Source of the DNA: Escherichia phage BAU.Micro_ELP-22
Sequence record: OR699282.2
DNA length: 64,000 bases
Direction: 5' to 3' (one strand)
Below are positions 44,346 through 63,698 of the stretch, piece after piece. Position 1 is the stretch's first letter; each line of letters starts with the position of its first letter. The notes beneath the pieces are model-generated. The model saw only the letters and a list, made by a program, of their open reading frames with translations. It ran no database searches and had not been told where the DNA came from. A program made the position numbers and the translations under genes.

Positions 44346-44371
44346 ATTTTAAAAGTATTTGTAGAAAGTAC

Positions 44372-44399
44372 TTGCACCGTACTGATAAAAGCGTATAAT
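44372..44399 (+). promoter_or_regulatory. class A early-type promoter (AGTACTTGCA..TATAAT) followed by 5' stem-loop
   Basis: First of ~25 similar promoters in 44-64 kb. Confidence 0.6.
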
Positions 44400-44454
44400 G
44401 TTTTACATCGAGAGCGGGAACACTTCCCGCTACACTTTAAAAGAGATGAAAACG

Positions 44455-44817
44455 ATGGCGACTCAAATCAATAAAATCATGCTTAACCTGGTAAACTTCC
44501 GCGATGAGATGAAAGGTCTTCCGGCTGAAACTGTAAAAATTCACATTGCAGCTTATCGGGAACTTATTGCAATGTTGCCGCTTAAGCGTGAACAATACGC
44601 CGCTACTTTGATGCTGGATTCAATGATCCATATAATGATCTCAAATGATTTGACGATGGTTTATCAGTATATGGGCGAAAATTTCGCGGTGTGTAGTAAG
44701 CCAGTACCAGGGATGGCAACAACTGAGGAATTGCACGGCTTAAACTTAAAACAAGATGCATGGGATAATATGCCTCGTTTCCTGGTATGGGCTGACAGTG
44801 GCAAAATTTACAAATAA
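44455..44817 (+). CDS. hypothetical protein
   Basis: Start after hairpin and SD AAGAG (120 aa); track ORF 44398 starts inside the -10. Confidence 0.6.
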   Translation: MATQINKIMLNLVNFRDEMKGLPAETVKIHIAAYRELIAMLPLKREQYAATLMLDSMIHIMISNDLTMVYQYMGENFAVCSKPVPGMATTEELHGLNLKQDAWDNMPRFLVWADSGKIYK

Positions 44818-44911
44818 GTTTAATAAAGTACTTGCATACTAAGTTAAAACAAGTATAATACTTTCTATCAGGTGGGGAATAGTTCCCCACTATAATTAAG
44901 AGATTAATTTT

Positions 44912-45145
44912 ATGAGTACTATTTTAACTGTTTCTCAATCCGTTGCACTGACTGACCTATTAAACGCTTTAAGCCGTTGCACTGAGGTTGGCTTGTTTGA
45001 TGTGGTTGACGTTGCACCGGACGTTATTAATCATTTTTGTGATGCGATGGAAGAATGTAAGGAAGATGATAGCCGTATGATGGCGGTCGCCTTTGAGGAA
45101 GTACAGCCAGGTGAGATCAAAGGTTTACCAGTACTGAAAAAATAG
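44912..45145 (+). CDS. hypothetical acidic protein
   Basis: ORF 77 aa; promoter + hairpin + SD upstream. Confidence 0.65.
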   Translation: MSTILTVSQSVALTDLLNALSRCTEVGLFDVVDVAPDVINHFCDAMEECKEDDSRMMAVAFEEVQPGEIKGLPVLKK

Positions 45146-45227
45146 TACTTGCAAACTAAGTTTAAAAGCGTATAATGTTTTACATCAGGTGGGGAATAGT
45201 TCCCCACTATATAAGAGGATTAAAAAA

Positions 45228-45467
45228 ATGGCAAAATCAAAAATGTTCTTAGGTCACAAAAACAAAACTCATTGGAATGTAAGCCTGTGGATTAATAACG
45301 ATGAGGGATTGTATCGGTTGGCCCTGGATTTTATTAACGACAACACTAATCGCAATGATGCGGCCCGTCATATGATGTTATTTTTAGAACAGACTGGACA
45401 AGATAAAACACCGGACGGATTCAAATATAGCACTACTGCGATCCGTGCGGCGATGGTTGGAATGTAA
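45228..45467 (+). CDS. hypothetical protein, paralog of 47341..47580
   Basis: 79 aa; shared GHKNKTHWNVSLWINN..TPDGFKYSTTAIRAAMVGM. Confidence 0.7.
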   Translation: MAKSKMFLGHKNKTHWNVSLWINNDEGLYRLALDFINDNTNRNDAARHMMLFLEQTGQDKTPDGFKYSTTAIRAAMVGM

Positions 45468-45486
45468 TAGAATAGAATTTATTTAA

Positions 45487-45520
45487 AGTACTATCGCAAA
45501 AAATGATAGTACTTTATAAT
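45487..45520 (+). promoter_or_regulatory. class B promoter flanked by inverted repeat AAGTACTAT..ATAGTACTT
   Basis: Palindromic arms upstream of TATAAT; same architecture at ~58664, ~51040, ~54225, ~54490, ~62010. Confidence 0.5.
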
Positions 45521-45557
45521 AGTGTTTTATTCATACACCAACGATAAGGGCAACAGC

Positions 45558-45824
45558 ATGAATATTAAGTATTTTGCGACGCGTGAACAAGCTCGGATCG
45601 CCGCACGCCAGGACGGGGCAACGTTTAAAGATATGGGCGTACAATCGGAACGTGGTAAACGTTGGGCCATTGTAAAGCGTAGTACCGCCAGATCATTACA
45701 GTACTGGTTAGCGGCCTTAAAAAGTCCCGATAGTGTATCGCGTCGAGTGGTAGAAATAAAGCTCGACCGAAAGGGCAACCGCGTGACCGTGTACCGTACT
45801 AAAAAGATTGCAGTACTTGAATAA
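45558..45824 (+). CDS. hypothetical protein, paralog of 58746..59141
   Basis: 88 aa; YFATREQARIAARQDG..KGNRVTVY shared. Confidence 0.65.
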   Translation: MNIKYFATREQARIAARQDGATFKDMGVQSERGKRWAIVKRSTARSLQYWLAALKSPDSVSRRVVEIKLDRKGNRVTVYRTKKIAVLE

Positions 45825-45911
45825 AAAGTACTTGCAAACTAAGTTTAAAAGCGTATAATGTTTTACATCGAGAGCGGGAACACTTCCCGCCTATAACCTG
45901 GAGTAATAAAA

Positions 45912-61174: not shown

Positions 61175-61362
61175 CAGTTGAAGAAGTTAAAAAAGTACTG
61201 GCAGTACTACGCTATCATAATCATTGCAAGGTGAAGAATGATCCTGATTATCTCGATTCATCCCTGGAAGAGGATACACTACAAGCAATAAGCCATATGC
61301 AAACATTAGCAAAGCGTATGACTGAAAAGAACATGCCGGACTATATCGGAAATAAAATTTAA
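61171..61362 (+). CDS. hypothetical protein
   Basis: ORF 63 aa, ATGA-coupled. Confidence 0.55.
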   Translation: MTVEEVKKVLAVLRYHNHCKVKNDPDYLDSSLEEDTLQAISHMQTLAKRMTEKNMPDYIGNKI

Positions 61363-61449
61363 AAAGTACTTGCATTGTAGTTAGATTAACGTATAATGTT
61401 TTATATCGAGAGGGGGAAATGGTTTCCCCTCAAGTCCAGGAGATACACC

Positions 61450-61713
61450 ATGAACACTATCGAAATCACTATCAATGCACACGTATACGACAACGTAGTA
61501 CTGCAAACTACTATGACCGCTAATGATACCAGTACTTTGCGGAATACTGTTATTAGTGCCGTATGTGCCGCTATCGGTGATGTCGCCCTGGAAAATGCAA
61601 AACACGTAAACGATGGTTTCACTATGTGCAAACGTGATAACGCAAAACATATCATCGTAGAAGGTTACGGCGGTGTAGAATATAATGTTTATATGAAAAA
61701 AGTACTTGCATAA
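61450..61713 (+). CDS. hypothetical protein
   Basis: Start after hairpin, SD CAGGAGA (87 aa). Confidence 0.6.
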   Translation: MNTIEITINAHVYDNVVLQTTMTANDTSTLRNTVISAVCAAIGDVALENAKHVNDGFTMCKRDNAKHIIVEGYGGVEYNVYMKKVLA

Positions 61714-61780
61714 TAACTAAAACAAAGTATAATGTTTTGCATAGGGGGAGATATCCTCCCCCACTAAAAGGAGTAATAAA

Positions 61781-62005
61781 ATGGCTAACTTTGATGAACT
61801 GATGCGGGAAGTAGCTACCCTGGCAGAAGAAAAGAAATCATTCGATTCTATCTATAGCACCGCTCACCGTGATTCAGTACTGGCATGTAACCAGGATCAA
61901 AAAGATGAACTAATCGCCACCTATCATGAAGCATGGAAGTACTACCGACAATGGGAGAAAGAAGAAAGAGAGTCTACCATTGACGGCCTCAATAATCTAA
62001 TCTAA
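61781..62005 (+). CDS. hypothetical protein
   Basis: ORF 74 aa; SD AAGGAG. Confidence 0.65.
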   Translation: MANFDELMREVATLAEEKKSFDSIYSTAHRDSVLACNQDQKDELIATYHEAWKYYRQWEKEERESTIDGLNNLI

Positions 62006-62081
62006 AAGTTTTATTTCAGTACTATTGACATAGCTTGATAGTACTGATGTAATAACTTTACTAACTACAAGGGGAAACATA

Positions 62082-62339
62082 ATGGAACAGTTCACACAAT
62101 ATCGGGTAAATCCTCAAGCTATGGCCTACGTAGAAGACCATAAAACATTACCAGTACTAACACCAATTAAAGGCCATATCTATCGTGCAATGTCATGGAA
62201 TACCGCCCAGGATAGATATACTACCGCTGGCGTGGGTATGTATTGCGGGAATGGTGAATGGTTTGATCCAAATAATCCGGTAGCCATTGACAGTACTGAA
62301 AAAATGAAATGGGCCGACTACATCGAAGATATTTCATAA
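62082..62339 (+). CDS. hypothetical protein
   Basis: ORF 85 aa; class B promoter upstream. Confidence 0.6.
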   Translation: MEQFTQYRVNPQAMAYVEDHKTLPVLTPIKGHIYRAMSWNTAQDRYTTAGVGMYCGNGEWFDPNNPVAIDSTEKMKWADYIEDIS

Positions 62340-62429
62340 AAACTATTTGACAGTACTAACCAGTAATGTATAATGTTTTACATAGAGCGGGGGAATAGTT
62401 CTCCCGCCAATAGTTTGGAGTAAAACATT

Positions 62430-62630
62430 ATGTCTATCGCTATCGCCCTGGTTGAAGTACTGAAAGAAGCTAAAGCCAACCAGATCGACGTAAAGATCCA
62501 GGAACTACAAAACGGCGTAATCGGCTGTACTTGTACCGCTGGTGGAGCGGCAGACTATCGAGAACACGAATCACTCGAATCACTGGTTCGGTATCTTACC
62601 ATGATCGTTGATGATTGGAGAATCATCTAA
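62430..62630 (+). CDS. hypothetical protein
   Basis: ORF 66 aa. Confidence 0.6.
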   Translation: MSIAIALVEVLKEAKANQIDVKIQELQNGVIGCTCTAGGAADYREHESLESLVRYLTMIVDDWRII

Positions 62631-62874
62631 CAAAAAAGAATAAAAAAGGGATTGACTCCGGTCAGTCCCTTTGCTATTATATACGCATAGACAAAAACTA
62701 GCCCACAGGGTGCATAGGTGTATCCAAAATATATAGTTAATAACGGTGAGTAACTATCTGCTGGTGGAGTGAAAACTATTAATAAAAAAGTATTGACAAA
62801 GTATATCAGTACTGCGATAATGTATCTCGTAGGGCGGCAATGGTGCAACGGCCCACAAAGTTAGGAGATTCAAA

Positions 62875-63207
62875 ATGAGTACTTCAATCGCTATCGTTAA
62901 AGCTTTCATCCGTACCAATGTTTCATCTGTATTCATCGACGGACTGGATCGTGAAGTAGAATACTCAATCATTATCGCACAGACTGCAAACGGTGCTCGG
63001 TATATCCTCAATGATAGTGAAGCAAATCACTACTACTTCACTAAAGCTACTGGCTTTAAACGCATCGATGCCGATGTAGTATACGCTAAGATGAATAAGC
63101 TGGTAGACAAGATTAACGCTAAAGGCACTATTGATTTACAGTACTGGACCGAAACCGATCCAGAATATGGATCTCACCGCTACCTGAATCCAGGTATCAA
63201 AATGTAA
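62875..63207 (+). CDS. hypothetical protein
   Basis: ORF 110 aa; SD AGGAGA. Confidence 0.65.
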   Translation: MSTSIAIVKAFIRTNVSSVFIDGLDREVEYSIIIAQTANGARYILNDSEANHYYFTKATGFKRIDADVVYAKMNKLVDKINAKGTIDLQYWTETDPEYGSHRYLNPGIKM

Positions 63208-63296
63208 AAAGTACTTGCATAGTACTTAGATTCATGTATAATGTTTTACATAGAGAGGGGGAAATGGTTCTCCCTCCTAAATTAAGGAGTTTTATC

Positions 63297-63698
63297 ATGA
63301 CCTTCTCAATCACTTCCTTCGCTGACGTTTTAGTACTGGCTCGGACTTTTGGTAAAGATGCACTGGAGTACGCTGTAAGTAATGGCACTATCCAACCGGA
63401 ACAGTGCCGCATCATTGGAAACTGCAAACGTTGGGCGGTATCCAATACTATTGCACTGGAAAACTTCCACGATGGCAACAATGAATATTCTGTTGATGTA
63501 GTATTCGAAGCCGTTGATCTCGGCGGTATCTATAATACTAACCTGAATGATGTGCGTATCGTTCGCACTGGGTTCGGTGCTTATGATGTATCTATTCGTG
63601 AAGCTATGAACACCGGATACATTAGCAAGGACTTACTTGCTCACATCATGCAGCTGTGTACGGAACGTAACGAAGCACGCACTATCTTAGGACTGTAA
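63297..63698 (+). CDS. hypothetical protein
   Basis: Start after hairpin, SD AAGGAG (133 aa). Confidence 0.65.
   Translation: MTFSITSFADVLVLARTFGKDALEYAVSNGTIQPEQCRIIGNCKRWAVSNTIALENFHDGNNEYSVDVVFEAVDLGGIYNTNLNDVRIVRTGFGAYDVSIREAMNTGYISKDLLAHIMQLCTERNEARTILGL

Follow-up and report, generated by a model that had tools for sequence, protein, structure and literature searches.

Promoter-early stem-loops (PeSLs) are known from the T4-like phages RB49/phi1, PST and nt-1 (Arbiol et al. 2010, PMC2839356; Comeau et al. 2014, PMC4122927). A PeSL is composed of an AT-rich region, a consensus early promoter, a stem-loop built of a G-run and a C-run, a Shine-Dalgarno sequence (SD) and the ATG; it precedes ORFans in hyperplastic regions, and PeSLs mediate indels by recombination between copies (PMC2839356, PMC4122927). 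We analysed a stretch of 64,000 nucleotides (nt) from Escherichia phage BAU.Micro_ELP-22 (sequence record OR699282.2; the whole stretch is called the window below) and found in it a repeated expression module ~90 nt long, composed of a promoter and a hairpin, which heads each cassette in a block of small genes at 44.3-64 kb.

The module and the PeSL share an AT-rich upstream region and consensus sigma70 -35 and -10 elements, followed by a stable G-run/C-run stem-loop and then by the SD and ATG. Both are repeated many times and precede small ORFan genes in a plastic region, and in both the breakpoints of indels and replacements between close relatives coincide with the motifs; a second subclass in the window overlaps the -35, as in published subclasses. 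The differences lie in the carrier, which is a 350-kb Asteriusvirus-like phage instead of a member of Straboviridae, in the array, which here fills a direct terminal repeat (DTR), and in the hairpins, which have no U-rich tail. In addition, the stem-loop of the main class here is always at or past the expected transcription start and would hence be transcribed, the nearest published subclass being the one 'downstream of -10'. In phi1, by comparison, nine of the nine promoter-associated stem-loops inspected lie between -35 and -10 (TTGACAggggatcgggagatcccctATAAT) or across the -10, and both types, the within-promoter one (TTGACAcatatcaGGGGATAggtTATACTATCCCC) and the transcribed one, occur in Salmonella phage Munch, which is related to the window phage. 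The module showed no similarity in sequence to the T4-type motifs: blastn returned no Straboviridae match, and the covariance model R1, built from 12 module copies, gave no match in the phi1 region. We class the transcribed-hairpin module with the PeSL kind, in a new phage lineage.

In the papers we found on Asteriusvirus, its relatives or RaK2-like phages, the module is not described. The published account of CBB mentions nothing beyond RpoD-like promoters that carry UP-like elements and cluster in the early region, and public annotations mark only canonical terminators and ribosome-binding sites, not the module. A preliminary description of the window had noticed the promoters and hairpins and overlooked the match to the PeSL concept, the DTR identity of the block and the behaviour of the cassettes as swappable units.

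Between 44363 and 63276 there are 27 promoter-plus-hairpin modules, 27/27 on the + strand; the preliminary description had named 17 examples, and a module is present at 17/17 of them. The parts follow in the order A-tract (resembling an UP element), -35, 16-nt spacer, TATAAT, GTTTTACAT, hairpin, A-rich linker, SD and ATG. The promoters are sigma70-like as had been proposed, with (AGTAC)TTGCAA or TTGACA as -35 hexamer; the spacer to the -10, earlier put at ~16-17 nt, is 16 nt in the modules. At ten + strand promoter sites, 12/12 consensus positions were found. The segment between the -10 and the stem reads G/A-TTTTACAT-C/G-RA. The stem begins 8-14 nt (mode 12) after the -10, at or past the expected +1, and the ATG follows 17-24 nt past its end, so the hairpin does stand between the expected transcription start and the SD. 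Stems are of 7-9 base pairs (bp) and are built on GGGG.../...CCCC: the 5' arm is a near-pure purine run (GGGGAGAA, GAGGGGGAA, GCGGGAA, GTGGGGAA and others) and the 3' arm the matching pyrimidine run, after which the A-rich linker often reads ACTAA or GGTAA. The loops, of 3-5 nt, are variable (tag, cgg, cac, tgg, atga, atgg, acgg, aacg, acatc, atatc), and two modules (46383, 57508) have loops of ~13 nt. The AAYNGTT-like loop core reported before is really the GAA/TTC closing pairs at the top of the stem. No loop motif is conserved, and the idea of a regulator that binds the loop by its sequence is therefore weakened.

The number of copies is far above chance. A strict scan of the block, for a -10-like hexamer followed after 7-15 nt by a stem of 7-9 bp with at least 4 G-C pairs and a 3-5 nt loop, returned 25 matches on the + strand and 1 on the - strand, against a mean of 0.17 (maximum 2) in 200 dinucleotide shuffles. 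The motif AAAAAGTACTTGCAA with at most 3 mismatches occurs 41 times against 5.7 expected, and a 68-nt direct-repeat family has 23 members, the whole repeated unit measuring 70-110 nt. R1 gave 29 matches in 43-64 kb (E from 1e-13 to 0.06) plus one at 15110, on the + strand only. Outside the block the window contains only this outlier and a related long-stem version at 770-872. Of the two distant hairpins mentioned in the preliminary description, the one at 15126 is thus a true outlier copy (R1 E = 0.024), and the one at 810-872 shares the promoter and the distance from promoter to stem but has a 13-bp stem with a long loop. Its statement that each gene, or most genes, of the block have the module was too strong: about half of them do (~25-27 of ~54), ~10 further genes have a similar promoter without hairpin, and the rest are in short operons. 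The curated Rfam models matched nowhere in the whole window at the gathering score; at E <= 1 over 44.3-64 kb the sole Rfam match was a chance miRNA elsewhere in the block, and a tRNA scan found nothing.

Evidence for selection on the hairpin comes from its stem. We collected 111 R1 matches (73 distinct) from the window and seven other loci, namely three Asteriusvirus genomes, Salmonella phage Munch, two Vequintavirinae phages and one Phapecoctavirus. In the 73 distinct copies 97.0% of the cells pair, compared with 86.5% after shuffling of the partners, and two-sided changes occur in 6/8 stem pairs (68 cells). None of 500 shuffles reached any observed measure of pairing or covariation, although copies that are paralogous, in an alignment fitted to the model, make these statistics overstate independence. 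Sliding the 3' partner lowered all measures, the paired cells to 53-92% and the covariation score from 0.40 to 0.065-0.16. The compensatory stem variation claimed in the preliminary description is thus borne out by the covariance-model alignment. At least 42 distinct stems were found, all of which still pair, and many copies have identical stems. Orthologues lend independent support. For the gene at 54009, the hairpin is GGGGAGAA-tag-TTCTCCCC in the window and GGGAAGTA-acag-TACTTCCC in UE-S1 (L001), with three compensated positions. In Phapecoctavirus and Vequintavirinae, unrelated stems (GGCGGCA/TGCCGCC, GGCGGC/GCCGCC) take the equivalent position behind similar promoters.

The mismatches also tell the strand. 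Where the sense strand has a G·U pair, the opposite strand has an A·C mismatch, and in the inner five pairs of the model alignment we counted 32 G·U cells and 1 A·C cell; a symmetric search over the distinct stems of the window and five loci gave 7 G·U and 1 A·C. Since G·U is tolerated and A·C is not, the hairpin is kept as a sense-strand structure, most simply as RNA, and the selection on RNA structure proposed before gains evidence from the sense strand. Neither an operator that is symmetric in double-stranded DNA nor an element of the minus strand fits this asymmetry well. Minimum free energies of 42-nt segments did not separate the two strands (53 vs 48, p = 0.47), a comparison confounded by flanking pairs on the minus strand. 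Folding of single sequences gave z-scores of only -1.2 to -4.9, because G-runs and C-runs fold well even when shuffled; the case for structure therefore rests on recurrence at a fixed position and on covariation.

The region at 44.3-52.3 kb is 90-97% identical to Asteriusvirus jumbo coliphages (~350 kb), among them ECO103 4-12-1, phAPEC6, CMSTMSU, EC.P1, G17 and UE-S1, with 4-12 matching pieces per genome. Judged from these matches, the window phage is an Asteriusvirus-like jumbo coliphage. The record of vB_Ec-M-J annotates the homologous stretch, positions 1-21525, as DTR, and in the alignment window 43001 corresponds to its position 290 and window 63999 to its position 21396. Because of this annotation and alignment we take the module-bearing block to be essentially the entire ~21-kb DTR, with a putative start near window 42712; the repeat so placed (42712..64000, no strand) continues past the window end. 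In vB_Ec-M-J, 27 of the 27 R1 matches at E < 0.01 are within the annotated DTR and none is in the next 8 kb. We also observed that directly past the repeat end of that phage (L003, 21600-29700) small genes are tightly packed, with overlapping stops and starts and without modules, and that in this comparison the layout of one promoter per gene is specific to the terminal repeat. For the related phage fEgEco12, a 20,993-bp DTR was proven by restriction mapping (PMC13070987), and in the related jumbo phage PA5oct the DTR genes are highly transcribed early genes while infection needs the host RNA polymerase (PMC7318152).

A Pfam scan of the cassette proteins assigned no family to most products tested. 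The exceptions were a GNAT acetyltransferase (55683-56039), a DksA/TraR zinc finger (55361-55618) and a weak kinase-like match (59786-60370). Such a gene content is compatible with an early region for host takeover. Phages T5 and BF23 offer a parallel in this respect: their pre-early/early promoters are very strong sigma70 promoters, and we know of no repeated hairpin described in the 5' untranslated regions (5' UTRs) of their terminal repeat. Their pre-early genes are located in the long terminal repeat and are injected in a two-step process (PMC10644984). The likeness to the block consists of a terminal repeat that probably enters first, small host-takeover genes, near-consensus host promoters and A-rich upstream regions.

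Between relatives the block is a mosaic. When the window was compared with three close relatives, 23 of the 57 ends of collinear alignments were inside module spans, which make up 14.5% of the block; the ends are partly common to the relatives, and by our own tally ~13-15 of the ~36 unique positions are in or beside a module. Two cases bear the classic marks of such exchange. The window has a cassette (52598-52880) that relatives L001-L003 lack; the two modules beside it correspond to a single module there, and the breakpoints fall within modules. In the opposite direction, module 23 (aligned over 60814-60914) aligns to both modules flanking an extra ~400-nt cassette in G17 and vB_Ec-M-J.

From phage to phage, orthologous genes that are 94-100% identical often stand behind different modules. 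In G17 the gene at 61450, which is 99% identical there, follows GCGGGGGAA-tag-TTCTCCCGC, and in the window it follows the stem and loop of module 24. The gene at 56118 has another promoter class and another stem in vB_Ec-M-J and 121Q, and the gene at 50573 has a promoter without hairpin in UE-S1 and G17, where the orthologue is 83-90% identical. Cassettes of module and open reading frame (ORF) recur in a different order, at 72-91% nucleotide identity, in the Vequintavirinae phages A5-4 and A73 and in Phapecoctavirus nepoznato. From the different modules on orthologues and the shared cassettes it follows that the module is generic and interchangeable and is exchanged across phage groups. In this the cassettes resemble the morons of lambdoid phages, which are units of promoter, gene and terminator and are likewise small, self-contained, independently expressed accessory genes gained and lost as units; as far as morons (Juhala et al. 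2000) are presented in PMC2839356, they have no shared flanking repeat, whereas here a conserved module supplies the homology for exchange and its hairpin is not terminator-like. A bolder reading, which we regard as doubtful, would make the block an integrase-free cassette array, in which the module would be a common adaptor. By homologous recombination, ORFans for host takeover or anti-defence, ready for expression, would pass between E. coli myoviruses of at least three taxonomically distinct groups (Asteriusvirus, Vequintavirinae, Phapecoctavirus), and the hairpin would in addition be an RNA tag for a dedicated factor controlling stability or translation of the early set.

The hairpin, then, is selected as a sense-strand structure, is independent of the gene it precedes, is interchangeable and has no U-tract. 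As to what it does, we incline to a generic 5'-UTR stabiliser or insulator, the repeated module being also a patch for recombination. Transcription from sigma70 promoters usually starts 6-8 nt after the -10, with a preference for a purine after a pyrimidine. By this spacing we infer a start at one of the two A's in GTTTTACAT, which would place the hairpin at about +5 to +25 of each early mRNA, with ~1-7 unpaired bases before the stem. If host sigma70 RNA polymerase starts at this distance from the -10, the hairpin would come near the 5' end of the early mRNA, where it could protect the transcript against decay that begins at the 5' end (RppH/RNase E) and give any attached gene the same open surroundings of its ribosome-binding site. 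The stems fold at -11 to -16 kcal/mol and the predicted 5' UTRs fold into the hairpin at -12 to -16 kcal/mol, and with the hairpin the SD has a predicted mean unpaired probability of 0.72. The repeated module, for its part, would be a homology patch for the deletion, insertion and swapping of cassettes within and between phage genomes, as proposed for PeSLs. The 5' UTR of ompA, in the 1992 work of Emory, Bouvet and Belasco, is reported to be an mRNA stabiliser with a 5'-terminal stem-loop; the likeness is a stable hairpin near the mRNA 5' end, upstream of an accessible SD, with an effect independent of the gene.

We also considered a switch of anti-anti-SD, anti-SD and SD and rejected it. Removal of the 5' arm lowered SD accessibility from 0.72 to 0.50, and scrambling of the 3' arm lowered it equally (0.49); the drop is thus an effect of composition and gives no sign of an SD-switch design.

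Several points weigh against the stabiliser or insulator. The +1 is inferred from general sigma70 spacing, and the predicted unpaired leader of 1-7 nt may exceed the length that reportedly remains protective in ompA: if transcription begins at the A 6 nt past the -10, as many as 7 bases would be unpaired, which may be too many for full protection. Some orthologues have promoters without hairpin, as do ~10 promoters of the block, so the hairpin is dispensable for a given gene. T4-type PeSLs and some promoters of Munch have the stem-loop inside the promoter and outside their own transcript; if all such stem-loops share one function, the target would be read-through RNA or DNA instead of the 5' end. 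That the spacing is so uniform may be due to a shared origin of the copies and not to functional constraint, just as their paralogy weakens the shuffle statistics.

The main rival is attenuation of read-through, the canonical PeSL reading, by which the hairpin acts on RNA from the upstream cassette (as attenuator, terminator or barrier to 3' exonucleases) and insulates neighbours, its position in the next transcript being incidental. In a reporter, a PeSL stem-loop cut read-through as strongly as rrnB T1 (PMC2839356). The stems here have the same G-run/C-run composition, the position of the stem-loop relative to the promoter varies in phi1 and Munch so that the common feature is a place after the previous gene, and the sense-strand G·U asymmetry fits this reading equally well. 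The module hairpins, however, are not terminator-like: they are GC-rich stems without a U-tract, T averages 1.8 (maximum 4) in the 8 nt that follow the stem, and a terminator scan flagged 0/27 of them while listing the true terminators of the block. The latter include a canonical intrinsic terminator at 49576..49592 on the + strand (AGCCCAC-ctg-GTGGGCT, then a T-run) and further canonical ones at 48459-48481, 50307-50328 and 59164-59182. The block contains eight canonical terminators in all, and the scan also picked up the four terminator-promoter composites described below. At least 4 terminators have a module within ~150-200 nt downstream whose hairpin is intact (e.g. the modules at 48609, 50479, 53484 and 60503). 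Further, the first module (44363) has a hairpin though no gene lies within ~1.6 kb upstream. We rate attenuation as an unlikely explanation of the hairpin.

Less probable again is a trans-acting factor which reads the hairpin as a common RNA tag and switches the whole early set, whether a phage translational repressor, an endoribonuclease, an antiterminator or a host protein. Such a factor could find ~27 copies at the same place in the early transcripts of one region, with a constant polarity of the arms and conserved GGGG/CCCC and GAA/TTC that exceed what structure alone requires. The polarity can also be a result of the copies' recent shared ancestry, G·U pairs being the intermediate steps of change. 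Loops of 3-5 nt or, in two cases, ~13 nt differ freely in sequence and length, and the stems differ at 6/8 positions. The same genes function behind hairpin-less promoters in relatives, and no candidate binding protein was identified. The nearest known arrangement is the boxB of the lambda nut sites, recognised in antitermination by N, which is likewise a short RNA hairpin soon after early promoters; the loop of boxB is conserved and read by N and boxB has 2 copies, whereas here the loops vary among ~27 copies.

That the hairpin is a functionless inverted repeat, carried along in a much-duplicated unit of promoter and leader, seems very improbable. The whole unit of 70-110 nt is indeed repeated and many stems are identical; yet the covariation makes pure hitch-hiking unlikely, and paired changes, G·U excess and the unbroken pairing of all the distinct stems speak against it, as do the unrelated stems at the same position in Phapecoctavirus and Vequintavirinae. 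A DNA-level signal, by which a single-stranded hairpin or cruciform would be a site of recombination, replication or packaging as in the attC of integrons, we consider the least probable of these readings: the PeSL authors did speculate that GGGG...CCCC is a target of a recombination protein and mapped one crossover inside a loop (PMC2839356), and breakpoints do cluster in the modules, but ordinary homologous recombination across 70-110 nt repeats explains the breakpoints, all copies are co-oriented with transcription with a mismatch asymmetry that favours the transcribed sense strand, and variable stems argue against a sequence-specific DNA-binding protein.

If the stabiliser or insulator reading is true, cassettes of the PeSL type are not confined to T4-like phages and would be a general organisation for holding and exchanging early accessory genes in large virulent coliphages. 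With the stem-loop inside the mRNA, an element so far taken for a terminator would become a candidate for stabilising or insulating the 5' UTR. The module would also mark the starts of poorly annotated early genes in ~60 published jumbo-phage genomes, and it may serve as a compact natural part of promoter, 5' UTR and ribosome-binding site with many functional sequence variants.

The individual modules, all on the + strand, are located as follows. Module 1 (44363..44431) has its -35 (TTGCAC) at 44372, its -10 (TATAAT) at 44394 and the hairpin AGCGGGAA-cac-TTCCCGCT at 44413-44431. Module 2 (44823..44891; -35 TTGCAT at 44832, -10 at 44854) has GGTGGGGAA-tag-TTCCCCACT at 44871-44891, and module 3 (45140..45208; -35 TTGCAA at 45149, -10 at 45171) has the identical stem at 45188-45208. 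In module 4 (45823..45890; -35 at 45832, -10 at 45854) the hairpin is GCGGGAA-cac-TTCCCGC at 45874-45890. Module 5 (46383..46463, -10 at 46414) is a long-loop variant without a following ORF, with the stem ACGGGGAA...TTCCCGT and a loop of ~13 nt; its paralogue, module 19 (57508..57585), is also a long-loop variant without a following ORF. G·U pairs are present in the hairpin of module 6 (47262..47322; -10 at 47284), GGCGGGGAG-tgg-TTCCCCGCT at 47302-47322. Module 7 (48146..48214; -35 at 48155, -10 at 48177) has AGGGAGAA-atgg-TTCTCCCT at 48195-48214, module 8 (48609..48677; -35 TTGCTA at 48623, -10 at 48645) a hairpin at 48659-48677, and module 9 (48930..48997; -35 TTGATA at 48939, -10 at 48961) GGGGGAG-cgg-TTCCCCC at 48981-48997.

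Module 10 (50479..50549; -35 at 50488, -10 at 50510), ~160 nt past the terminator at 50307-50328, has GAGGGGGAA-acgg-TTCTCCTTC at 50528-50549 with two G·U pairs. The hairpin GGGGAGAA-atga-TTCTCCCC occurs three times, in module 11 (50798..50866, hairpin 50847-50866), module 12 (52313..52381, hairpin 52362-52381) and module 14 (52881..52949, hairpin 52930-52949); module 11 together with its ORF is also found in the Vequintavirinae phages A73 and A5-4. Module 13 (52542..52608) contains AAGGGGAA-aacg-TTCCCCTT at 52589-52608 and module 15 (53484..53552) AGGGGAAA-cgg-TTTCCCCT at 53534-53552. Module 17 (56034..56100) has a TATAGT -10 at 56066 and AGGGGAA-acatc-TTCCCCT at 56082-56100.

The class with a TTGACA -35 comprises module 16 (53919..53986; GGGGAGAA-tag-TTCTCCCC at 53968-53986), module 18 (56655..56723; hairpin 56704-56723), module 20 (57964..58032; GAGGGGGA-atgg-TTCCCCTC at 58013-58032), module 21 (58233..58303; GAGGGGAA-acgg-TTCCCCTC at 58284-58303), module 23 (60810..60877; hairpin 60859-60877) and module 26 (62338..62407; GCGGGGGAA-tag-TTCTCCCGC at 62387-62407). 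The remaining copies of the block are module 22 (60503..60572), with a G·U pair in AGGGGGAA-atgg-TTCTCCCT at 60553-60572, module 24 (61361..61431; GAGGGGGAA-atgg-TTTCCCCTC at 61410-61431), module 25 (61697..61762; GGGGGAG-atatc-CTCCCCC at 61744-61762) and module 27 (63206..63276; GAGGGGGAA-atgg-TTCTCCCTC at 63255-63276). The outlier outside the block (15079..15145) has TTGACA at 15088, TATAAT at 15110 and GGGGATGA-acttc-TCATCCCT at 15125-15145. The related architecture at 770..872 has a similar promoter, and its stem begins 11-12 nt after the -10.

Four terminator-promoter composites were found on the + strand (53353-53380, 57391-57418, 60382-60409 and 62645-62672), each with AAAGGGATTGACTCCGGTCAGTCCCTTT followed by TATTAT. 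In these a TTGACT -35 is overlapped by the stem, CTTT/GCTATTAT comes after the stem, and they correspond to the second PeSL-like subclass, with the stem-loop overlapping the -35. What they precede is not an ORF but a conserved stretch of ~60 nt containing CCCACAGGGTGC. The composite with this stretch occurs five times in the window (53340-53470, 57378-57470, 60369-60499 and 62632-62724 on the + strand, ~43960-44125 on the - strand) and five times in Salmonella phage Munch (L005; near 970, 9786, 15378, 18723 and 20289). We consider the ~60-nt stretch a candidate small-RNA family, to which no Rfam entry matched. At 6500-20000 on the + strand, ~8 copies of AAAGGGTTGACTTCGGTCAGCCCTTTTT followed by TATAAT precede larger genes; each is a terminator hairpin from whose loop and stem the next promoter takes its -35, the same class of composite as in the block.

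Downstream of the long-loop modules (46383-46540 and 57508-57660; also 49638-49760) comes a conserved stretch of ~100 nt without coding sequence (…cccgttaagtagcccaggagtaaggcacacgaaaaactcccctgataaaa), with another promoter after it. This stretch is a second candidate non-coding RNA, and A73 (L006) has one too, near 5600. At 46604-46757 we found a perfect tandem duplication of 77 nt, which is not a multiple of three and interrupts an ORF that G17 has as one gene of 612 nt; it may be a true frameshifting duplication or an assembly artefact.

A further promoter class, at 51021-51087, 54215-54281, 61999-62065 and 62767-62833, is composed of TTGACA, a 17-nt spacer and TGnCATAAT (an extended -10). 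It is bracketed by the inverted repeat CAGTACTAT…ATAGTACTG, is operator-like in appearance and has no downstream hairpin.

The commonest hexamer of the window is AGTACT, with 295 copies against ~22 expected from base composition, and the palindrome CAGTACTG occurs 66 times in 1-64000 against 1.08 in shuffles; both are found in coding and non-coding DNA. In the promoters of the block, AGTACT stands at the upstream edge of the -35 (17 promoters) or abuts the -10 (12 promoters). CAGTACTG is densest at 42.6-44.3 kb, where twelve copies stand in 42642-44314, a stretch that covers both the inferred boundary of the repeat and its first ~1.6 kb, which are non-coding. The two sequences may be motifs for protein binding, modification or packaging. 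Finally, paralogous genes of ~1.1 kb follow one another on the - strand at ~24000-37000; annotations of relatives call them RCC1-like or 'DNA condensation' proteins, and between each gene and the next stands a common repeat composed of a GCCAGTACnnnGTACTGGC hairpin and then TTTCTTATTTGTATTAAATATAGT.

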